The notes: generated by a model from the letters alone, not told the origin. A stretch of 33,902 nt of DNA from a virus (IMGVR_UViG_2778261509_000015); one strand, 5' to 3'; positions 2,856 to 28,842 are shown, counted from the first letter of the stretch. Made by a program: numbers and translations.

Positions 2856-5800
2856 CGTCCACCTCCGGATAACAGCCCACCATCACGGGACTGCTGTTGC
2901 ATAAAGTCAGCTGCTGCTTTTTTCCCGAGGTCATACACCACCTTCAGTGCAGCCGGGCCTATCTGCCCGTTCGTGCCGTCATTATTAATCTCAATGTGGT
3001 ACTGCGGGGCAAACATCGCCATACCCGCACCACTGGTCGCTGCCACAACCCCCAGTTTGCCGTCAGCACCACGACGCAGTGGCAGAATGGCTTCAGGCCC
3101 GGCCTCGCCCATCACACCAGCGCCTTTTGCAAAAGCAAAAAACGTCGGACGGTTAACCACTGTGCCACTGTAGCGACTCAAATCAGCAGACTGATAAACA
3201 CCACCACAGGCATTAAAGGAAAGACTGCCGAGAACAGAACCCAGCCCCAGTGCACTACCAACGCCCTTTACTGCCTGCATCATCGCCATCTGTGCCATAA
3301 TTTTTGCCATATCCGACAACAGGGAAGAGGTGAAGGATTTAAAATTCAGCTTTCCGGTGGTACAGAACGTCGCCAGCCCGTTGCCCATGCTACTGAACGC
3401 GGTATTAAACAACTGCTCAGCGGTACCCGCCGCATTATCCGCATTCTCTGTAAAACTCTGAAAAGCCCGCATGGCACCCTTTTTCCAGTCTGCCTGCATC
3501 AGCTCCTGTTCCTGCCAGTAACGTCTGTTTTCGTTCAGTTGCCGGTTAAGACTGTCTGTCAGCGTCTGCTCAGCATTCCGGTATTCATCTGTGCCGTATG
3601 TTCCTTTCTGCTTACTGTCACGCTCCAGCTGTTCCCGCTGCTGCTGATATTTTTGTTGCAGACTGAACTGTGACTGGTATCGCTGACGCTGTTTATCCCC
3701 CATCCCTGTCGTGGCGATATCCAGGTCATGTTGCTGACGCAGAGCCCGTTCCTCTTCCGCCAGCTGGCTGGCAAGCTGAATGGATTTTTTCTTCAAATCA
3801 TTCAGCGCCGTCTGCTTCTGCAGCTCCTGCTGTTTTGCATCCAGCAGCGTCAGTGCCTGAACCAGCTCATCCTTATGCGCCAGCATGCTTTTTTCATCTG
3901 CCGTCAGCTTTTTACCGGCTAAGTCACTGATACGCTGCTGCAGGGCCAGAAGCTGTTTATGTGCTTCAGTCATCCTTTCAGTGACAATGCCTGCTGACTG
4001 TCTGGCGGCGGCAATCTGCCCCTCCACCTGCGCCTGTTGCTGGCTGTACTGCAGTAATAACCGGGTGGCCTCATCATTGCGGGTGGCAGGCGTTTTTTTC
4101 TTAATGGCTTTTTCGTAACGTTCATTTTCACGTTGTATCGCTGCATCCCTGACCGCCTGATCGGCGTACTGCATGGCATTAATACGCGCAAGTTCACGCT
4201 GATGTCGTGCTGCTTCCGTTTCATTCATCCGGTTCAGCGCAGCATTTTCAGCATTACGGCGTTTCTGTTGCTCCTGATAATTCCGCTCTGCCTGCTCTTT
4301 TGCATCCTGCAAATCCTGCTGGCGCTTTCGCTCTTTCAGCGCATCCAGTTGTTGCTGATCGTATTCCACCGTGGTGGACGCGTTCGTCCACGGAAATCTC
4401 TTCGCACGCTGAATTTTTTCCTGCAGCGCCGAAATCTGTTCATCCAGCGAGTCTTCACGACCAATATTCATGGCCGCATCCCAGAACTGCCTCCACCAGT
4501 CAGACAATGTCTGAAGCGTACTGCCCAGCGCATTGAGGTTATTATCAATATCCGCAGTACGCCGACCGGTTTCCTCTGCCAGTGCAGACATGGCTATCCG
4601 TGCAGCATCACTGGACCGTCCCTGATCCCCAAGGACACGTATCTGCTCAAGCTGAGTGGCAGTAAGAAAATGCAGCTCATTGTCCAGAGCCTTCGCGGCA
4701 TTTACAGGATCATCCTTCAGCCGCTTAAACTGATTTATGGTATCGCTGACCGACTGGCCAACCGATCGCTCCATCTGTGCGGCAGCTCTCGCCACCATAC
4801 CGATATCGTTTCCACGAAATGCACCACTCCCCACCACCTGAGCCAGCGCACCGGCTGCAGCATGTTGCGTGATACCATTCCCGGAAATAGCACGACTGAG
4901 CGTCCACAGCTGCCCGGCAGTGACTCCGGCATAATGCCCCGTCAGCGACAACTGCCGGTTAAATTCTTCCCCCTCCTTCTGACCGTCATACCAGGCTTTA
5001 CCAAGACCATAGACGGCCGCGGCAATACCGCCAATAACCCCGCCCAGCATCATGCCTTTCGGTGACATCAGTGTGTCTATCCATCCGGCACGGTTAGCCA
5101 GCGTTATCCCGGATCCCCTCAGCGCACCTAAATTGCCGCGGGCCAGTTCACCTATCAGAACGCCTATCTCCTGGCGGGCCGCTGCACTTTTCAGACCCAG
5201 CGAATGCGTGGCTTTTCCTGCCTGCTCCATTTTGCGGATATACACTTCTGCAGCACTGCTTACCCCCAGCTGGGCTGCCTTAGCACGAAGCAACTCAGAA
5301 GATGAAAGATTCTGGCGGGTTGCCTGCTCTTTAAGCTGACGGATAAACGCCACTTTCTGTCGGGTAGCCTCTTCCTCAGCCTGTGTAAGAACACGGGTTT
5401 TCGCCGTAACCTCAGAAATCAGCGCCAGATAATCCTGCTGACCAATCCCGCCACTGTTTCTGGCCTGTCGGATCTGCTGCTGAATACGCTGTAATTCCTG
5501 CAGCCCCGCACTGGCCTGTTTCACACTGTCAATCTGACGATAAAACGCAGCAGCCGCTTTATCCTGAGCCTCCGCCAGAGCCATGGCCTGCGCCTGTTCC
5601 TCGCGCATTTTCTGGCTCAGTGCCTCCATGCGCTGGCGGTTTTTTTCCACCTCGCGGGCCATGCGTTCATGAGCCTGTGTGTTCTTCTCCACCGTCTGCG
5701 CATGGACGGATGCGGCTGTTGCAGACGAAGAAGCCGCCTGCGTTGTCTGCCGGGCGGCCTGAGTCTGACGCTCCATAAAACGCTGCATACGGGCAGAAGA

Positions 5801-15428: not shown

Positions 15429-15594
15429 AAGCAACTCCATCTGGCAGGTGAAAATCGGGTTTATTTATATATTTCAATTAATTGCAAACTAGTCTAATGA
15501 CAGGGAGAAAAAAATATTGTACAGGCGAAAAGAGAAATAACTTTTAATTATCAATAAATTACCGAACATGCTGCCGCCGCCATGGAAATGCAAA

Positions 15595-15630
15595 AACTAG
15601 CCTTTTTCCGCGACGCTCCCGCCCCGTGGC
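15595..15630. other. Candidate cos site (cosN-like), lambda-type variant
   Basis: Minus-strand ACGGGGCGGGAGCGTCGCGG resembles lambda cos GGGCGGCGACCTCGCGG as recalled; lies about 190 bp upstream of terminase small, as in lambda. Confidence 0.4.
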
Positions 15631-15870
15631 AAGGCCACCCCACCGGGAGGACCCATGAAAAATGAGAGCAATTATCATTTATGCTCAATTAAACATCAGC
15701 ATTATCGCAGCCCCTCACTGAAGGACTGCTGTAATGCTGATTGTTCAACATCAAAAAACCCAATCTGTTGCAAGTTATAAAAGCAACAAACGACATTGCG
15801 CGTTAAGATTTTCTTAATATTTAAGAAATATATTTTTTAATCTCATTTATTTTTGCAAAAGACTTTTCAT

Positions 15871-16446
15871 ATGCAGCGTCGAGAAATAAAGAAAATTACT
15901 TATTTAATCACTTTGATTTTAACTACTCTTTTGTTTGTTTATTTTTTAAGAACACCCACCACAATCAATATGAAACAGGCGCATAAAATAAATCAACAAC
16001 ACCAGACAATTTTCCTTATCCGTCACGGTGAACGATGTGACAGAAGCAAAAATGCATGTCTCTCAAGCAATAAAGGAATTACCGTCAATGGTGCCATTAA
16101 AGCTCGTGATTATGGAAAAATATTTAGCAATACTTTCCCGTCATTCAGCCTTTACTCCACGGATACCATACGGACAATGCAGACAGCCTGTTTTTTCTCT
16201 GGAGGAAAAGCAGCCTCCCGGATACCGTTGGCTGCAACATGCGGACTTGATGCTGCAAAGAACATACTCAAATTGTCATCCGATAATAAAACTACCGTTA
16301 TATTCACCCATAATCATTGCCTGACACAAATAGCAAAAAAAATGAAATGGTGGAAGTTAAAGCCAGAATATCTTGAAACACTGGTTCTTCATATCGAAAA
16401 CAATCGTCTCATTCTTGACGGAAAACTGACTCACGATAAAGCGTAA
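15871..16446 (+). CDS. Ais/PmrG-like histidine phosphatase (putative LPS core heptose(II)-phosphate phosphatase), N-terminal membrane anchor
   Basis: LIRHGERCDRS catalytic RHG motif, FTHNHCL motif, overall resemblance to E. coli Ais as recalled; ATG at 15871 (ORF track start 15853 is TTG); AT-rich flanks; opposite strand to late genes. Confidence 0.7.
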   Translation: MQRREIKKITYLITLILTTLLFVYFLRTPTTINMKQAHKINQQHQTIFLIRHGERCDRSKNACLSSNKGITVNGAIKARDYGKIFSNTFPSFSLYSTDTIRTMQTACFFSGGKAASRIPLAATCGLDAAKNILKLSSDNKTTVIFTHNHCLTQIAKKMKWWKLKPEYLETLVLHIENNRLILDGKLTHDKA

Positions 16447-16517
16447 CAATCATTCAAAGAGTCAACATATTTTCTGCATTAACCCCGAACAGTTCCTCTG
16501 CCGGGGTTTTGTATTAG

Positions 16518-16895
16518 TTATCGCCTCAACTGAAAATGCGGTCCGTCTTTCAGGCTAGTCCAGTCCCCGCCCCATTCGATGGCAGTTCCCAGCTCTGCGG
16601 CAGCCTGCTTAAATGCCTGCGCGATTTTCTCGTACAGAGGCCAGTCCCATGACACCTGGCTGCCAACCCAGGCCACAACATCCACCGCATCACCGGTCAG
16701 GTGGCGGCTGTTCATGGTCTGGCTCTTGCCTTCTGCAACCAGCTGTTTCTGGCGTTCTTTCGTGCGCAGGCCTTCCGTAATACCGAAATCAACCTCCGAC
16801 AGTTCAAGGGCGCGGCGAACTACAGCAACCAGCTGTGGTTTGACGCCTTCCAGATTTTTCTCGCTCCGGCGGCTGAATCTGAATTTACCCGACAT
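16518..16895 (-). CDS. Endolysin, peptidase M15-type (L-alanyl-D-glutamate / D-Ala-D-Ala peptidase fold)
   Basis: SRHLTGDAVDV and PHFQL zinc-ligand motifs; ATG at 16895 with GAGGTGA upstream (ORF track start 16901 is GTG); follows holin genes. Confidence 0.7.
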   Translation of the reverse strand: MSGKFRFSRRSEKNLEGVKPQLVAVVRRALELSEVDFGITEGLRTKERQKQLVAEGKSQTMNSRHLTGDAVDVVAWVGSQVSWDWPLYEKIAQAFKQAAAELGTAIEWGGDWTSLKDGPHFQLRR

Positions 16896-16897
16896 AT

Positions 16898-17173
16898 TCA
16901 CCTCAACAATGGAAAGATTCTTGTGACGTTCCCGCGTGCGCGTATCACCAGCACGCAGAACAGCAGATTAAAAAACACATCCAGCCAGCCCGTTGCTAAC
17001 GGGCGACCACACAGATAGCTGAGAGGCGCAAAGGCATACAGCAGCATCAGCAGCCAGGCCAGCCATGACATCAGCGGTTTATGTCTGGAATCACGGCGAC
17101 GATAAAAAAAGAGCGTCAGCACGATAACCGTGCATAACGCCACATTCAGCAATCCGGGAAGGTTACTTAACAT
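16898..17173 (-). CDS. Small 3-TM membrane protein in lysis cassette (second holin or antiholin candidate)
   Basis: ATG at 17173 with GGAGGAGG 5 nt upstream; 91 aa with three hydrophobic helices; overlaps holin stop and endolysin start. Confidence 0.45.
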   Translation of the reverse strand: MLSNLPGLLNVALCTVIVLTLFFYRRRDSRHKPLMSWLAWLLMLLYAFAPLSYLCGRPLATGWLDVFFNLLFCVLVIRARGNVTRIFPLLR

Positions 17174-17555
17174 TACCGCCTCCTCCGCCTCGCAAGCGGG
17201 AGAACAGTCCTGACACCAGCGATGCAATATCCTGCTGGTGGATGAACGACAGAATCTTCACCGACACCACAGACACCAGCACTGCACACAGCGCGTCGAC
17301 AGATTTACTGTGAAGCCCCAGTTTTTCGACCAGATAAGACGCCATCACATCCGCCCCCAGTACGCCGATAATAAACGACACCAGAAAATGCGCCGCCACC
17401 CGCCAGACAGAAAGCGCCTGCGGCATCGTTGCCACAAACAACGCCCCCGCGAACGCACCAAACACAATCCCGAAATCCGTTCCGGTGAACAGCCCGAATA
17501 CCGTCGCCCCTCCGAGCGCAGCCGCCGTGCCGGAACCGGATAAGGGTTCAGACAT
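17163..17555 (-). CDS. Putative holin (about 130 aa, 3-4 TM, Gly-rich C-terminal tail)
   Basis: ATG at 17555 with AGGAG 9 nt upstream; hydrophobic helices; first gene after tR'-like terminator and before endolysin. Confidence 0.5.
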   Translation of the reverse strand: MSEPLSGSGTAAALGGATVFGLFTGTDFGIVFGAFAGALFVATMPQALSVWRVAAHFLVSFIIGVLGADVMASYLVEKLGLHSKSVDALCAVLVSVVSVKILSFIHQQDIASLVSGLFSRLRGGGGGNVK

Positions 17556-17570
17556 ACTTTTTTCTCCTGT

Positions 17571-17596
17571 AAATAAAAAAGGGCCACCAGCGGCCC
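17571..17596 (-). terminator. Rho-independent terminator (tR'-like) just upstream of holin
   Basis: Minus strand GGGCCGCTGGTGGCCC followed by TTTTTTATTT, 15 nt before holin RBS. Confidence 0.6.
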
Positions 17597-17723
17597 GTAA
17601 AAAACAACACCCCGTCAAAGGCACCCACAGATACCTTTTGTGTGGTGTATTCAGATTTGACATACGCTGAGCAGGGCGAAGAAATGAAAAAGGCCCGCAG
17701 TAGCGAGCCATGAAGAAACTGAA

Positions 17724-17749
17724 TAAAAAAAAACCGCCTGGTACGGCGG
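17724..17749 (-). terminator. Second rho-independent terminator between tRNA-Gly and holin
   Basis: Minus strand CCGCCGTACCAGGCGG followed by TTTTTTTTT. Confidence 0.55.
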
Positions 17750-18013
17750 TTAAGATGAATTTCCAGGTTTTGCTTAATACGTGATTAATCTCAACGTTTT
17801 TTATAGATGTTAACAACATCGGAATGATGCATCACCGGCCCTGTCAGGAAATACAAAATCTCCACCGATAATGCACCATTACGCTGTTGTAAAAAAACAG
17901 CACTGGACTGTAACCGATATCACGTATTACAGAACAGGATGTGGATAAAGATTCAGGAAAACATCCCACATATAATATGTCAGTGCCCAAAACAACTTGG
18001 TATCGTCTACTGC

Positions 18014-18088
<75 letters not shown>

Positions 18089-18505
18089 ATACTATGCGGT
18101 CTTCAGTAATCACACGAATTACCGTGAAAGCCAGCACTGGTCTTTCCGACGGTAGTAACACCCCTGTGAACACCAAAATAACCGTCTTCCAGACCGACGA
18201 GAATACTAACGACATTTTTTCAGATATCAAAAATATATTTTGTTTTTAGTTTTTAATATATGTATGCATCTGTATCAGAAATATACAATTTATATCATTA
18301 CTAAATTAAAAACATTTCTCTGACGTCTGATTAAAACGTTCCTGTTCCAGTTCCGCGCCAATCACACATGGTCATTGCGTTTTACCAGTCCATCGCCACT
18401 ATCAGGCTGACCAGGGGACGCCCCACCCGAACTGCTGAGAATGCCAGGCACACAAAGAATAATGCCCGCCAAAGCGTTCCTGCATACAATGACTGCAAAA
18501 TTCAG

Positions 18506-19249
18506 TTATTCTTGAGCGGAGCCAGAACTCATCTCACTGAATGCAGCCATCCTGTAACCTTCCGGGGTGACCCCAAAATAACGCCTGAATACACTGATAA
18601 AATAAGATGTATTATTATAGCCACACTGCACAGCGATTCTGTTGATGGCACAGCTATATTGATGCAACAGCATTGCTGCCATTCTCATTCTCTCCGTAAG
18701 CAACAACTCACTGAAACATGTGCCTTCTTCTTTCAGTCTTTTTTTTAACAAACTTTCACTCATACATAACCGTGATGACACATCTCGCAGAGTCCAGTTT
18801 GCTGCAATGTCTGTATGAAACAACGCACCAAGCCTGCCGCTGATAGTACTGATACACGCGGTCATAAACGACGAAAACATTTTATCTGATGAAAAAAACG
18901 CCAGACACGAAAAGGAAAGCATTTCCGCTAAATTGTCCGTATGAATCTTTTCCTCATAAAGATAATCAATCAGGATGCCCATCAATTCTGGCCTGGGAAA
19001 ACTCATGCAAAGATATCGTGGCATTTTCCGGACTAAAACAACATCCTGTTTTACCCCACTACGCAACAGGTAACGGCTAATTGTCGATTCACTGAGACTT
19101 ATACGCCGAAAACATTCAGAAAAGGGCAATAACGGTCCAGCCCCTCCCCTGACAAGAAGTGCACTACCACTTTCCAGAGAGAGTACTTTTCCTTCGAAGA
19201 GCACAACAAACGGGGAATGAACAAAAATAACAGAACAGGCCTCATTCAT
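18506..19249 (-). CDS. AraC/XylS-family transcriptional regulator (AppY/YdeO/GadX-like)
   Basis: C-terminal AraC HTH (IAVQCGYNNTSYFISVFRRYFGVTPEGYR); N-terminus MNEACSVIF resembles AppY; ATG at 19249 (ORF track start 19357 is GTG); AT-rich flanks. Confidence 0.8.
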   Translation of the reverse strand: MNEACSVIFVHSPFVVLFEGKVLSLESGSALLVRGGAGPLLPFSECFRRISLSESTISRYLLRSGVKQDVVLVRKMPRYLCMSFPRPELMGILIDYLYEEKIHTDNLAEMLSFSCLAFFSSDKMFSSFMTACISTISGRLGALFHTDIAANWTLRDVSSRLCMSESLLKKRLKEEGTCFSELLLTERMRMAAMLLHQYSCAINRIAVQCGYNNTSYFISVFRRYFGVTPEGYRMAAFSEMSSGSAQE

Positions 19250-19372
19250 ATCAATATCCCTGACATTACTGGTCGCAAGATAAGTATATATCACTTTACA
19301 AAAATGCAAGCCGTGAGCCCCGAATTCACGACCACCAGCGTGTTTACTGTACTGCACCAGGTTTACAGGTAC

Positions 19373-19395
19373 AAAAAAACCCGCTCGACGGCGGG
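19373..19395 (-). terminator. Hairpin CCCGC-N6-GCGGG with T7 run on minus strand, upstream of AraC gene
   Basis: Read directly: aaaaaaacccgctcgacggcgggttt. Confidence 0.5.
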
Positions 19396-19822
19396 TTTAA
19401 GCTGTGTGGCGAAGTAACCACCCTTAACAGCATAACCAATTTTTTACGTACGTAAACCTCTAAACAATATTTGTGAGAATGATATCGAGTGTTCAAAACA
19501 CCACCACAATCACATAAGGAAAAATAAACAAATAATCATTAAATAATTTCTGGCGTTATTTTTAGTGCATTTAAATTAAATAGATGAATTATAAAACGCT
19601 TATAAATAACAACCTTTAATATGATTTTGCTACCAAATTTATTTTCTTTCAGGTAATAGTCATGTACAGCATGCAATAGAAAAAGTTCAGATGAAAATAG
19701 AGATCTAGCTCACAATTTAAATAAGAATCTAAAACTTACATCTTGAATTAATCACATTGATTAGATGAATATTTGTCGCGCAGGGCATCATTTTTTAATA
19801 AATTTCAAAAAAAGGTCTCACG

Positions 19823-20920
19823 ATGAAAAAATTAACAGTGGCAATTTCTGCTGTAGCTGCATCAGTACTGTTGGCGATGTCTGCTCAGGCAGCAGAGATT
19901 TATAATAAAGACAGTAACAAACTCGATCTGTACGGAAAAGTTAATGCTAAGCACTACTTCTCCTCTAACGAGGCAGATGATGGTGACACTACTTATGTTC
20001 GTCTGGGCTTCAAAGGCGAAACCCAAATCAACGATCAGCTGACTGGTTTCGGTCAGTGGGAATACGAATTCAAAGGCAACCGTGCTGAATCTCAGGGTTC
20101 TTCCAAAGATAAAACCCGTCTTGCGTTCGCTGGCCTGAAATTCGGTGACTACGGCTCCATCGATTATGGTCGTAACTACGGTGTAGCATACGATATCGGT
20201 GCGTGGACTGACGTTCTGCCAGAATTCGGTGGTGATACCTGGACTCAAACCGACGTATTCATGACTCAGCGTGCAACTGGTGTTGCAACTTACCGTAATA
20301 ACGACTTCTTCGGTCTGGTTGATGGCCTGAACTTTGCAGCTCAGTACCAGGGCAAAAACGATCGTAGCGATTTCGAGAACTACACCGAAGGTAACGGTGA
20401 TGGCTTCGGTTTCTCTGCTACCTATGAATACGAAGGATTCGGTATCGGTGCAACTTATGCGAAATCTGATCGTACCGACACTCAAGTTTATGCAGGGAAA
20501 GTTCTTCCTGAAGTATTTGCTTCCGGTAAAAATGCAGAAGTTTGGGCCGCAGGTCTAAAATATGACGCTAACAACATTTACCTAGCCACTACCTATTCTG
20601 AAACCCAGAATATGACTGTATTTGCTGATTACTTCGTTGCTAATAAAGCTCAAAACTTCGAAGCTGTTGCACAATATCAGTTCGATTTCGGTCTGCGTCC
20701 GTCCGTTGCTTACCTGCAATCTAAAGGTAAGGATCTTGGAGTATGGGGCGATCAGGACTTAGTCAAATATGTTGATGTAGGTGCAACCTATTACTTCAAC
20801 AAAAATATGTCTACTTTCGTTGATTACAAAATCAACCTGCTTGACAAAAATGACTTCACTAAAACACTCGGTGTAAGCACTGACAACATCGTTGCTGCAG
20901 GATTGGTTTACCAGTTCTAA
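19823..20920 (+). CDS. Outer membrane general porin (OmpC/OmpF/NmpC/Lc family)
   Basis: Signal peptide [24 protein letters not shown]-terminal [18 protein letters not shown]-terminal Phe (VYQF), 365 aa; opposite strand to late genes as nmpC in DLP12. Confidence 0.9.
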
Positions 20921-21055
20921 TTTGGTTACTAAAAGATATGTTGCGGGAGGCGTTGCCTCCCCAACATATAAGTGGCTCCCTCAAGCCACTTCCTTTAGAA
21001 GCACTACCTTGCTTCTGACTATATAAACCTTCTGTTATATATTACCCTTTATTTT

Positions 21056-21080
21056 GGGGGCGTTTATACGCCCTATTTTT
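21056..21080 (+). terminator. Porin terminator (GGGCG-loop-CGCCC followed by TATTTTT)
   Basis: Read directly about 135 nt after porin stop; a second hairpin GGGAGGC-GTT-GCCTCCC sits at 20945..20961. Confidence 0.5.
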
Positions 21081-21107
21081 AATAAAATTAAGTGAACAAT
21101 TAGCGTA

Positions 21108-21491
21108 TCAATTAGACTTCGTAACAACGACATCCATCTCTAACCGGATATCTAATGCCATTAACATCCCTTCAATTATTCCCTCAGCCTTCTGTAACTT
21201 TTTCCCGATATAACCATCAGAGCAACGATGCTTACTTGCCAGTGACATGAATGTCATACCACCTACATAATAATCCACTAATAAATCGTGCAAATCGCTG
21301 TTGTTCTTTTTCAGACGGGCCATGCACCCGCAAATGATCATCGCGTCATCGTCACAACATTGCGGACGGGGTTTTACTTTTGAAGGAAGTAATCCCTTAA
21401 AACCGGCAGCAATGGACGACCAGGTCACATCCTCATGATTATTAGCCGCCCATGCCCCCCAACGTTCAAGAACCATTTGAATATCACGCAT
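21108..21491 (-). CDS. Late gene antiterminator Q (phage 82 / QuuD-like)
   Basis: ATG at 21491 with GGAGG 7 nt upstream gives [26 protein letters not shown]..., matching DLP12 QuuD as recalled; Cys-rich zinc motif. Confidence 0.85.
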
Positions 21492-21508
21492 CAACTTCCT
21501 CCACAAAA

Positions 21509-22504
21509 TCAGGCCAGCACGCCTATTGCCAGCGCACGATCGATAAAACGAAATATCAGCTCCAGCTGGGAGCCATACTTCTCTTCAAATGCCACGGTAT
21601 CCGCATGCAGCTCGTCGTGATGCTTTCTGCACAAAGGCAACACAAAGAGGTCATGCGCTTTTGTTCCCATTCCACCCTGACCGTAACCTATCAGGTGGTG
21701 GGGATCATCAGCGGGCTTTCCACAACATGCACACGGCTGTGTCTTAACCCAGCGCGTGTACTTTTCATTAACCCAGCGGCGACGTTTTGGGCGTAACATA
21801 AAAGACTCCGGCGACTCCGGATCCACTTTCAGCGCCAGCACCTTTTTCGCCTTATCCTGGATGATGCTGGTGGCAGGAACCGAAGGCACAAGGTCACTTT
21901 CCCGGGTGACAGACGGCACAACAGGCTTCGGTAATCTCAGTGCCTTACGGGCTGCGCTTTCCGGTAAGGCATCCGCCAGATCATTACGAACCAGCCACCA
22001 GCACAGTTCCGGCATTGTCACAACGTGACTGTCATCAAAACCGAGATCCCGACGCACAACAGACAACACCCAGCGGGCACAGTTATCCGTTGCCATTGAT
22101 TCCAGCCGTTCCGTGAACTGATCGCGCAGCTGGTTATCGCAGTGCCAGCATAGACGGATTGCACCCGGAGCGTGTCGCATTGTGGTCATGTTCTCGCTGT
22201 GCCAGTCGGAATGAGGCCACTGGCAGCCTTTTTCACGAAGTAACCAGCTTTCAAGACATTCCACGCCACCAGCACGACGGATCACTGCCTCATTGCGGAA
22301 CACGGCCCGAACGGCAGGATCATCCGCCAGCGGTTGTGATGCCGCGGGAACGGCACCACTGGCGAAAGATGAATAACGCTCCGGCTCAGGCTCCAGCAGG
22401 ACACGCCCCTGCATAAACAGGGGCATCAGCTCTGAACCTGGCCTGAACAATACGATCCCCATACGCGGGGCAATTTCAGGGGTCAGTAGTGCTCTCACGG
22501 TCAC
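21509..22504 (-). CDS. DUF968-family phage protein (YdfU-like, HNH-like Cys/His motif)
   Basis: C-terminal CACCGK...HH...CRKHH motif; sits upstream of Q as ydfU does in Qin; GTG start coupled to upstream stop (alternative ATG at 22462). Confidence 0.6.
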
Positions 22505-24047: not shown

Positions 24048-24373
24048 GCCGCCATCTCCCTGACCAGTTTTTCCGCCTGGCGAGTCAGGCACAAAATCAC
24101 CCGGGAATCGTTAGTGCCGACATAGAAATTGCGCACAGGTCTGGTTTCACGAACTGGTTGTGGTTCCGGCTCCTGCGCTCTCTCAGCCAGGCGTGGGAAA
24201 TGTCTGCGTGTATCTCCTTCACAACGGTGAGCCACACGCCCACTCTGACGTAACTTGCTTGCTGACTGCAGAACGTGCTGCCGTGAGTAACCTGCAAAAG
24301 CATCCGCAATGTCTCCGGAAGTACACCCCGGATGGGCTTCAATGAATTTCTGAACTTCATTCAAAAGACTCAT
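24044..24373 (-). CDS. Hypothetical phage protein (possible winged-helix)
   Basis: ATG at 24373 with GGGGGTG upstream; coupled to O-like stop and LexA-like start; no confident homology. Confidence 0.4.
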   Translation of the reverse strand: MSLLNEVQKFIEAHPGCTSGDIADAFAGYSRQHVLQSASKLRQSGRVAHRCEGDTRRHFPRLAERAQEPEPQPVRETRPVRNFYVGTNDSRVILCLTRQAEKLVREMAA

Positions 24374-24375
24374 GA

Positions 24376-25194
24376 TCACCCCCTGAATCCTGCCGGGATC
24401 TGGCTGTAGTCCACGTTGTCGTAACTGGCTTTGAAGTACGGGTCCTCGCGTCTGGCTGCAGATACTGCAGGAACTTCCCAGGATTCTTCGAAATGACGAT
24501 CCGGACCAAAGAACGTGACAGCCTGTTTCACAAATTGTGTGCCGCTGTTACCCATCGCAGATACCCAGCCCGCGTAGCGTTTCACACCTTCCAGCATGGT
24601 TTCGGGTTTTACCCCCTCATTCAAACGAGCTTTCCAGGCTTTGAAGGCTGCAGATTTTGAATTGCCACCAGCACGTTTGGGGTATGCCAGCCATGCCTGC
24701 TCAAACTCCGGAGAGTATTCCGGTCGGTTTGAACGAACTCGCACGGACTCATCAGCAGATGCACCAACAGCTATTGGTTCATTGACTGGTTCTTTGACTG
24801 GTTCAAAAGAGTGACTGGTTCTGGGTGAATCTCCTGCACCACCCCCTGGTGCAACTCCTGCACTACCTGGTGAATTTGCTGCACCAGATAGTGAATTATT
24901 TGCACTACCCCATAGTGAATCTCCTGCACCATCAAGATGAAGGAGATAGATATTACTTGAGTTACCTTTTTCACCTTTCCGGGTGACTTTTTTTACCAGC
25001 CCGGACTCACAAAGGGCCGCAATATGATTCATCACAGAACGTTTGCTAATTTCGCACTGGTCAGCAATATGCTGGTAGCTGGGCCAGCACTCACCCTGAT
25101 CGCTGGCATTATCAGCCAGCTTGATCAGAACCAGTTTTCGCAATGGATTACCCACTCGAATTTTCATCGCTTTAACCATCAGCTCCATACTCAT
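24376..25194 (-). CDS. Replication initiation protein (O-like; N-terminal wHTH, central low-complexity linker)
   Basis: N-terminal LRKLVLIKLADNASDQGECWPSYQHIADQCEISKRSVMNHIAALCESGLV HTH; iteron array inside the gene as in lambda O; ATG at 25194 with GGAGGTG upstream. Confidence 0.65.
   Translation of the reverse strand: MSMELMVKAMKIRVGNPLRKLVLIKLADNASDQGECWPSYQHIADQCEISKRSVMNHIAALCESGLVKKVTRKGEKGNSSNIYLLHLDGAGDSLWGSANNSLSGAANSPGSAGVAPGGGAGDSPRTSHSFEPVKEPVNEPIAVGASADESVRVRSNRPEYSPEFEQAWLAYPKRAGGNSKSAAFKAWKARLNEGVKPETMLEGVKRYAGWVSAMGNSGTQFVKQAVTFFGPDRHFEESWEVPAVSAARREDPYFKASYDNVDYSQIPAGFRG
24771..24975. repeat. Candidate replication origin: two iteron arrays plus AT-rich stretch inside the O-like gene
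   Basis: Four copies of TTGACTGGTTC-like 11-mer (24771..24821) and five copies of a ~20-bp GTGAATCTCCTGCACC-like repeat at ~21-24 bp spacing (24824..24933), then AT-rich 24934..24975. Confidence 0.6.
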
Positions 25195-28479: not shown

Positions 28480-28842
28480 ATGGCTAGCGAACGCAGTACT
28501 GATGTGCAGGCATTTATCGGGGAGCTGGACGGCGGCGTATTTGAAACCAAAATCGGCGCAGTTCTCAGTGAAGTCGCTTCAGGTGTGATGAACACGAAAA
28601 CCAAAGGTAAGGTCTCACTCAACTTGGAAATCGAACCATTTGATGAGAACCGTGTGAAAATCAAACACAAACTCTCATATGTTCGCCCGACTAACCGCGG
28701 GAAAATTTCCGAAGAAGACACCACCGAAACGCCGATGTATGTCAATCGCGGTGGTCGCCTGACTATTCTGCAGGAAGACCAGGGACAATTACTGACTCTT
28801 GCCGGTGAACCTGACGGAAAACTCCGCGCAGCAGGTCATTAA
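28480..28842 (+). CDS. YfdP-like hypothetical protein (120 aa)
   Basis: ATG at 28480 with GAGGAG 8 nt upstream; size and position match CPS-53 yfdP (sizes recalled); first gene of the yfdPQRST-like operon. Confidence 0.5.
   Translation: MASERSTDVQAFIGELDGGVFETKIGAVLSEVASGVMNTKTKGKVSLNLEIEPFDENRVKIKHKLSYVRPTNRGKISEEDTTETPMYVNRGGRLTILQEDQGQLLTLAGEPDGKLRAAGH

Follow-up and report, generated by a model that had tools for sequence, protein, structure and literature searches.

An NmpC/Lc-type porin gene and an AraC-family regulator gene as late-region cargo of an Escherichia coli prophage

AraC-family regulators encoded by prophages (AppY, PatE, PsrA and PsrB) wire acquired DNA into the acid-resistance and virulence networks of Escherichia coli. 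All four act on gadE or hdeA (PMC10057817, PMC10877973, PMC13502914), as YdeO, GadX and GadW have also been noted to do (PMC10057817), and for PatE, PsrB and AppY the idea that prophage regulators reprogram acid resistance is established (PMC10877973, PMC10057817). PsrA and PatE also affect type III secretion, and PsrA, like PsrB, is associated with effector loci (PMC10877973). A porin gene is carried by DLP12 (nmpC) and PA-2 (lc) directly downstream of a QuuD-type antiterminator gene, Q, convergent with Q and upstream of the lysis genes, and the late region of Stx2 phages runs from Q, PR' and tR' through tRNA genes to stx2AB and the lysis genes. Here we describe a locus in a 33,902-nucleotide stretch of viral DNA (IMGVR_UViG_2778261509_000015; the whole stretch is called the window below) in which a porin gene of the NmpC/Lc type and the gene of an AraC/XylS-family regulator lie together between Q and the lysis genes, at positions 18089-21107, from the first base past a tRNA-Gly(TCC) gene to the last base before the Q stop codon. 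The locus is a new mix of known cargo types and not a new kind of system. What is new, and the novelty extends no further, is an uncharacterised regulator clade, which adds to the class of AppY, PatE, PsrA and PsrB and lies in a slot already described.

The chromosome of E. coli RM10740, an isolate from feral pig faeces, matches the window at 100% identity; there the sequence belongs to a lambdoid prophage integrated at thrW, the tRNA-Thr(CGT) gene beside proA, with the late genes on the minus strand. In the direction of late transcription come a DUF968 gene, Q, a 187-bp gap, the antisense porin gene, an AT-rich region, a terminator hairpin and the AraC-family gene, followed by tRNA-Gly(UCC), a second terminator-like hairpin, two holin genes and an M15 endolysin gene. 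An earlier reading of this DNA, made from the sequence alone (the sequence-only reading), had described a cargo island between Q and the lysis genes. We found every feature of that description in its place, including the position between Q and the lysis genes, and Pfam and protein identities agreed with the proposed OmpC/NmpC-family porin and AppY/YdeO-like AraC regulator. The terminator hairpin at 19398-19377 had gone unmentioned. The features of the locus, from Q to the regulator, are as follows:

21108-21506, minus: antiterminator Q, QuuD type, Q21 family (PF06530, E=1.8e-53; phrog_79, anti-termination protein Q-like)
20921-21107: Q-porin gap, with the porin terminator hairpin and one of two candidate PR' sites
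21057-21074, plus: terminator-like hairpin of the porin gene, with a T run (terminator scan)
19823-20920, plus, antisense to the late genes: NmpC/Lc-type general porin, 365 aa, intact (Porin_1, phrog_410)
19399-19822: AT-rich region upstream of the porin gene, 27-29% G+C (composition profile)
19398-19377, minus (late): intrinsic terminator hairpin AAACCCGC-CGTCGA-GCGGGTTT with a T run (terminator scan)
19250-19376, minus: conserved leader of the regulator gene, with an AGGGA site and a weak promoter-like TTGCAT, 15 nt, TATACT
18506-19249, minus (open reading frame to a GTG at 19357): AraC/XylS-family regulator, predicted length 247 aa (HTH_AraC and HTH_18, E about 1e-15; phrog_1450)

Chance can be ruled out as the source of these assignments, because the domain E-values are of such size and the window is fully identical to a deposited genome. 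The AT-rich flanks and the porin terminator of the sequence-only reading were likewise borne out, by the hairpin at 21057-21074 and by the G+C content of the divergent gap at 19400-19850, which is 27-29% compared with 52-59% in the flanking late and early genes. Both cargo genes are intact, and neither is a pseudogene.

Two cargo modules and the hairpin between them

The porin is the familiar part of the locus. Its match to Pfam Porin_1 covers positions 1-337 of 337 (E=9e-155), and the protein has a signal peptide, the C-terminus YQF and no internal stop codon. It is equal in length to DLP12 NmpC and PA-2 Lc (365 aa), with 96.4-97.5% identity to them: 97.5% to K-12 NmpC (rejoined after removal of the IS5 insertion) and 96.4% to PA-2 Lc. 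Identity to the mEp332 porin is 97.3%, and to the chromosomal porins 63.6% (OmpC), 61.6% (PhoE) and 56.9% (OmpF). Judged by these identities the porin is NmpC/Lc, a classic phage cargo gene with nothing new about it. The sequence-only reading had presented it as standing in for the cargo known from other lambdoid phages; instead, it is that known cargo itself (96-98% identity), in the classic layout of DLP12, PA-2, mEp332 and ev099. RefSeq/PGAP names the gene "porin OmpC", and it does pass the NCBIfam subfamily model of that name (529 bits against a cut-off of 484). We rejected OmpC orthology, given 63.6% identity to K-12 OmpC versus 97.5% to NmpC; on this comparison the RefSeq name is misleading and the gene is an NmpC/Lc orthologue.

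The surroundings of the porin gene are also those of its relatives. Forty-two deposited phage genomes encode the porin, and the order Q, antisense porin, holin is common to DLP12, the 434B recombinant, mEp332, ev099, ev243 and PA-2. The Q-porin gap is ~92% conserved relative to K-12 DLP12, mEp332 and PA-2, with an invariant hairpin stem and a variable loop. A distant search with the 3' end of Q plus the gap returned 36 matching phage records, all 36 lambdoid, and those inspected (mEp332, 434B, ev099, ev243 and PA-2) have the porin adjoining. On the other side of the gene, the upstream region is 84% identical to PA-2 and 84-92% conserved relative to DLP12 and PA-2. The PA-2 lc record (J02580) annotates two CRP sites; feature mapping placed their counterparts at 19402-19422 and 19697-19717, and a scan of the plus strand for a porin promoter gave a single weak promoter-like match, at 19509-19536. 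Three differences separate this locus from the described ones. K-12 nmpC is inactivated by IS5 (nmpC::IS5), whereas the porin gene here is intact; the lysis cassette consists of a holin-8 gene, a three-transmembrane (3TM) holin gene and an M15 endolysin gene, in contrast to S/R/Rz of DLP12 and PA-2; and here only, a regulator-tRNA module is inserted between the porin region and the holin.

The regulator module has a history of its own. DLP12-type similarity spans 19375-21533 of the window, and similarity to genomes that carry the regulator only runs from 15400 or 15591 to 19397 or 19430, the two overlapping solely at the terminator hairpin. The hairpin is the 5' edge of the regulator module and the joint between two mosaic modules. 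Porin and regulator are arranged together in just one of 44 IMG/VR loci and in one of 5426 complete E. coli genomes, RM10740. Because the similarities overlap only at the hairpin and the combination is so rare, what had been described as a single island is, by its sequence relationships, a junction of independent modules brought together by recombination.

The same hairpin delimits the regulator gene elsewhere. Across 10 contexts its stem is invariant and its loop variable, and the similarity between contexts starts exactly there. Upstream of the regulator lie a ydfT-type Q gene in ETEC1730, there directly adjoining, a DUF6731 gene plus a small opposite-strand open reading frame (ORF) in W13-16, and an ORF6N gene in E21845. 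In the 30 of the 44 IMG/VR loci with a recognisable lysis cassette, the regulator is on the late strand upstream of that cassette, and recognisable Q genes, where present among the 44, sit upstream of the regulator. The exact hairpin, AACCCGCC-NNN-GAGCGGGTTTTTT, has more than 120 matches in IMG/VR viral contigs. Because the hairpin marks where similarity between lambdoid late regions starts or stops, these alignments suggest that it serves as a recombination joint for the exchange of late-region cargo. In some IMG/VR contigs the hairpin precedes apparent structural genes and not lysis genes.

We compared the hairpin with that of an Stx2 contig (L095, hairpin at 3270-3293). There it lies ~45 nt past a TAAATT, 6 nt, AACGATGGG arrangement. 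Next come three tRNA genes, whose anticodons as assigned by ARAGORN (CAT, TCG and TCT) match those of ileZ-argN-argO in Sakai Sp4, and beyond them stx2A and stx2B. The contexts with a ydfT-type Q resemble the Stx2 contig in having a -10 (TAAATT or TAAGAT), 6 nt and AACGATGGG upstream of the hairpin, with a promoter-to-hairpin span of ~45 nt in the Stx2 contig to ~90 nt in the ydfT contexts (the latter counted from the -35). We take this arrangement to be the late-promoter layout of lambda, with its pause element. Lambda pR' has GGG at +7 to +9 (PMC5001585), in agreement with a late promoter at this place in the Stx2 and ydfT contexts. The Stx2 late region and the locus studied here therefore share the hairpin before the cargo and tRNA genes beside the cargo, and differ in that the cargo is a toxin in one and a transcription factor in the other, and in that the hairpin here is 1.7 kb from Q, with the porin gene between. 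Because the same hairpin precedes the tRNA genes and stx2AB, the regulator and its tRNA are, on this sequence match, strictly in the Stx slot. For the regulator, the sequence-only reading was thus exact in likening the site to that of Stx cargo, and the regulator gene holds the position of stx2 in Stx phages.

The Q gene itself is of a known kind. RefSeq annotates it as quuD (CDS 21108-21491), and it matches the solved Q21 structure 6P18 (E=2e-8). We had first assumed QuuD to be a relative of Q82; Pfam and the solved-structure search ruled this out in favour of the Q21 family. Two elements of a Q-dependent late cassette are present: this Q21-family Q and, before the late genes begin, the intrinsic terminator hairpin at 19398-19377. 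Two sites were considered for PR'. In the Q-porin gap, the late strand has a -10-like TAATAT followed 14 nt downstream by TATAGT (starts 20 nt apart), with no good -35, nothing above the promoter-scan threshold and no clear pause element in the gap. In the 60-nt block upstream of the hairpin there is a weak TTTACG, 16 nt, TATGCT, below the scan threshold and with no clear pause element in the block, which directly adjoins a Q gene in none of its 25 occurrences. Compared with the literature on the promoters of phages 82 and 21, neither candidate site could be recognised as the PR' of this Q type. An E21845-type relative has a strong promoter plus terminator directly after its Q gene. By analogy with the canonical Q late cassette (10.1101/651190), it is plausible that late transcripts cross the porin gene antisense. 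An Rfam scan of the region found only the tRNA, with weak Trp-leader and GcvB matches that are terminator hairpins.

The regulator and its relatives

The regulator gene probably starts at ATG 19249, giving 247 aa, and the start annotated by RefSeq (GTG at 19357, 283 aa, 20 nt past the hairpin) is probably 36 codons too early. We base this call on the close homologues, which have 245-247 aa and the N-terminus MNEACSV; on the AGGGA ribosome-binding site 7 nt ahead of the ATG; and on the N-terminal extension upstream of the ATG, which differs by context (308 or 315 aa in other genomes). The leader (128 nt) is nearly invariant over 10 distinct genomic contexts. Its TTGCAT/TATACT is a putative promoter that falls below the scan threshold.

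The protein covers positions 11-248 of 254 of phrog_1450 and aligns end to end with YdeO, GadW, AppY, ECs_0287 and PsrA-like proteins; within the MxxxCSV N-terminus of the family alignment, Cys5 is invariant and Ser6-Val7 nearly so. It has the PatE/PsrA/PsrB-type architecture, with a C-terminal double helix-turn-helix, ~240-250 aa and full-length alignment to the group, and is not close to any characterised member of that type. The identities of the regulator to its relatives are:

P0010, the best uncharacterised relative outside the clade: 42%
ECs_0287 (Sakai Sp1): 39%
PsrA (ECs_1087): 39%
GadX: 39%, C-terminal half only
GadW: 36%
YdeO: 35%
AppY: 31% over 233 aa, the lowest of the full-length comparators

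Several closer assignments were considered and rejected. The best NCBIfam match is the YdeO equivalog NF007407, at 143.4 bits against a cut-off of 348 (35% identity to YdeO); the GadX equivalog NF007432 scores 103.8 bits, over the C-terminal domain only, against a cut-off of 500. The protein is not an AppY orthologue, given only 31% identity to DLP12 AppY, and ECs_0287, at just 39%, is not a close match either. On these alignments the regulator forms a new clade of its own within the YdeO/GadW/AppY/PatE/PsrA group. The sequence-only reading was correct in the family that it named, and its "AppY-like" overstated the closeness, AppY being 31% identical compared with 39% for PsrA and what is likely PatE. 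The AlphaFold2 model (predicted local distance difference test score 83.7) has a beta-rich N-terminal domain and a C-terminal double helix-turn-helix domain; its best full-length fold matches are Rns, CsvR and ToxT (E ~1e-12 to 1e-8), and its DNA-binding domain superimposes on the GadX structure 3MKL with a TM-score of 0.90 at 43-44% identity. A literature search by the protein accession gave zero results.

The closest described parallel is PsrA. PsrA (ECs_1087, from Sp4 of Sakai O157:H7) and PsrB belong to the same AraC/XylS subgroup as the regulator and have ~240 aa and the MxxxCSV start. The slot of PsrA is the same: its gene follows Q on the late strand, with tRNA genes directly after it and the late genes beyond. 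The Sp4 order is Q, two ORFs, psrA and ileZ-argN-argO, whereas a single tRNA-Gly(UCC) follows the regulator here; PsrA and PsrB are 90% identical to one another, and the regulator is 39% identical to PsrA. PatE (z0321, of OI-8/CP-933H) is here equated with ECs_0287 of Sakai Sp1, a member of the same subgroup with 247 aa, from a prophage likewise at thrW. We infer this identity because ECs_0287 is the sole stand-alone transcription regulator annotated in Sp1 and aligns with the AraC group over its full length. Its gene lies at the far end of the Sp1 remnant, past the tail-fibre genes, like appY in DLP12, and not in the slot between Q and the lysis genes. Sakai Sp1 (L008 20042-30627) is itself at thrW, such that two different members of the regulator group have reached one site in different lineages. 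YdeO, GadW, GadX and AppY of K-12 have the same two-domain architecture, and all but GadX align end to end. In phages of the Lambda_ev203 type, a 36%-identical relative of the regulator is encoded directly upstream of holin S.

The clade is found in a small set of E. coli strains. It is present in 65 of the 5426 complete E. coli genomes (~1%), in two forms: an allele at least 99% identical to the one described here, in 23 genomes, almost only of pig enterotoxigenic E. coli (ETEC) and oedema-disease strains; and a second allele, ~91.5% identical, in 42 genomes mostly from cattle and farm environments. The clade is absent from all deposited phage genomes, among which the best match is 39% identical, and was not found in a scan of one genome per GTDB species. 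The ratio of nonsynonymous to synonymous substitution rates (dN/dS) between the two alleles is 0.30, indicating purifying selection on the regulator.

Possible roles of the two cargo units

Taking the evidence together, we consider it probable that the porin and the regulator are independent cargo units, the first an NmpC/Lc porin made in the lysogen and the second a regulator of the acid-fitness type with a Q-dependent burst of expression. By analogy with its relatives, the porin would be a major general porin of the lysogen, subject to catabolite control and made in the largest amounts under carbon limitation, and would partly displace OmpC. With less OmpC present, phages of the prophage's own receptor class would re-adsorb and superinfect less. 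OmpC is the receptor of phage 434, and in PA-2 lysogens Lc takes the place of OmpC. In strain NCM3722, which has an intact DLP12 nmpC, NmpC makes up ~2% of total protein, with an increase when carbon is limited; a strain with a disrupted nmpC has more than 10 times as much OmpC (PMC8144880). A search of the open-access literature on PA-2 biology returned nothing.

The C-terminal 249 aa of the prophage tail-tip protein J (RM10740, L183 2895-3641, beyond the window) are 93-94% identical to phage 434 and lambda h434, and ~93% identical to many Stx1a- and Stx2c-converting phages, the latter similarity implying a common receptor class. The one addition made by the porin part of the locus is an intact NmpC/Lc in a prophage with a tail tip of the OmpC-dependent 434 type.

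The regulator would be expressed at a low level in the lysogen from the weak leader promoter, and strongly after induction, when Q would let RNA polymerase read through the hairpin. By analogy with the other members of its group, it would activate acid-fitness-island promoters (those of gadE and hdeA) and thereby raise acid resistance. Such control of acid-resistance genes is a reasonable expectation from family membership at 31-42% identity. If it is true that the regulator activates the acid fitness island, the clade would be one more case of stomach survival tuned by phages, in livestock-associated E. coli.

Several observations weigh against this account. At 31-42% identity to the group, common target genes are not guaranteed, and the recognition-helix regions are alike across the whole group, so that they indicate no particular regulon. 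The best full-length fold matches, Rns, CsvR and ToxT, are proteins that control pili and toxins and respond to fatty acids. The scan of the regulator leader found no sigma-70 promoter above threshold. On the porin side, a 434-type J is visibly common to only some of the porin-carrying phages. Lastly, the combination of porin and regulator is as rare as noted above (one complete genome and one IMG/VR contig), and any functional coupling of the two would be incidental.

A more ambitious account is doubtful as a whole. It would make the regulator clade an Stx-like late cargo, always the first gene behind the hairpin, with its main burst dependent on Q. Induction in part of the population would then reprogram host regulons (the acid fitness island and the envelope), the allele of pig ETEC and oedema-disease strains would aid stomach passage or colonisation, and the 22-nt hairpin would be a universal recombination joint for stx, AraC regulators, tRNAs and lysis cassettes.

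The fold matches raise an alternative that we judge unlikely, in which the targets of the regulator are colonisation factors (such as fimbriae, toxins or secretion genes), as they are for Rns, CsvR and ToxT, and in which it may respond to gut fatty acids and has little role in acid resistance. Those three proteins are the top full-length structural matches of the AlphaFold2 model, Rns is also a sequence match over residues 87-232, the allele at 99% identity or more is almost confined to pig ETEC and oedema-disease strains, and PsrA and PatE influence type III secretion (PMC10877973). However, Rns and ToxT share only 17-20% sequence identity with the regulator, as against a full-length alignment at 35-39% for YdeO, GadW, ECs_0287 and PsrA; the TM-score to Rns is ~0.41, because the domain orientations differ; and the association with pig strains may reflect clonal sampling.

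The placement of the gene bears on a quite unlikely alternative, that the regulator is mainly lytic, made only under the action of Q and tuning host or phage genes (for the envelope or lysis timing) during virion production. The regulator is on the late strand directly past the hairpin in every context examined, the simplest contexts have no separate terminator between regulator and holin, and a holin of the same type follows in 30 of the 44 IMG/VR loci. Yet uninduced lysogens already express PsrA, PatE and AppY in active form (PMC10877973, PMC10057817, PMC13502914), a regulator made minutes before lysis would have little time to act, and the conserved leader could hold a promoter of its own.

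That the cargo is silent or decaying, with both genes kept off by H-NS and conferring no phenotype, is very unlikely. The AT-rich flanks are typical of H-NS targets, K-12 nmpC has been lost to IS5, and the prophage is somewhat decayed, lacking a recognisable spanin and having one partial and one frameshifted gene nearby; on the other hand, both reading frames are full length, the dN/dS of the regulator is 0.30, its leader is nearly invariant across contexts, and intact NmpC is among the most abundant proteins of NCM3722 (PMC8144880).

EnvY modulates porin expression in K-12, and control of the divergent porin gene by the regulator in the same manner, as a functional regulator-target island, could be imagined from the 573-bp AT-rich gap between the genes, the frequency with which AraC regulators act on divergent neighbours and the 39% identity of EnvY over the C-terminal half. 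We rejected the porin as a paired target on the distribution of both genes, and consider it highly improbable: the pairing occurs in one of 5426 complete genomes and one IMG/VR contig, the regulator has at least four other upstream neighbours, 42 phages carry the porin without the regulator, the modules meet at a recombination joint, and a terminator hairpin separates the regulator gene from the porin promoter region.

Neighbouring genes and further cargo

Downstream of the regulator on the late strand, the window has the following features:

18089-18505, minus: spacer between regulator and tRNA, with a promoter-like TTGATA, 16 nt, TAGTAT (18230-18203), ~115 nt upstream of the tRNA
18014-18088, minus: tRNA-Gly(UCC) with an encoded CCA end (ARAGORN; Rfam tRNA, 65.6 bits)
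17732-17751, minus (late): second terminator-like hairpin, between tRNA and holin (7-bp stem, 5 G-C pairs, T9 tail)
16518-17555, minus: lysis cassette (Pfam, PHROG lysis families, RefSeq)
17163-17555, minus: Phage_holin_8 holin
16898-17173, minus: 3TM holin
16518-16901, minus: M15 endolysin

The spacer is absent in E21845-type relatives, where the regulator abuts the holin, and the G+C content of the regulator is 43%, compared with 51-58% in the lysis genes. The tRNA-Gly(UCC) shares ~97% identity with a tRNA-Gly gene, probably glyT, that virtually all E. coli genomes have; an ~80% similar segment of DH5alpha likewise has a tRNA-Gly. In the holin downstream of the prophage tRNA gene (17163-17555, minus), GGA or GGG accounts for 11 of 18 glycine codons, which fits a role of this tRNA in rare-codon supply.

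No recognisable spanin follows the M15 endolysin in 15441-16517 of the window, and lysis may be impaired as a result. In the related prophage E21845, a small ORF with a lipoprotein signal stands at the spanin position (L004 6286-6441), where an Ais-like gene is found here instead. This gene, at 15853-16446 on the plus strand and antisense to the late genes, encodes an Ais/PmrG-like lipopolysaccharide core heptose(II)-phosphate phosphatase (score 208 bits with NCBIfam NF011945, whose cut-off is 142), has a G+C content of 29-30% and gave no PHROG match. It is a cargo gene between the endolysin and the terminase region, and from its predicted activity the phosphatase could alter the lipopolysaccharide core and hence susceptibility to phages or peptides.

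In the early region, RefSeq annotates a partial hypothetical gene (L001 26266-26580, window ~24065-24379) and a frameshifted yfdP (L001 30681-31042, window ~28480-28841), which represent mild decay of an otherwise complete-looking prophage. Directly past the tail-fibre assembly genes of the RM10740 prophage (L183 7389-10065) lie genes for a DNA cytosine methyltransferase and a type II restriction endonuclease, a pair that may be a further cargo module of the same prophage.

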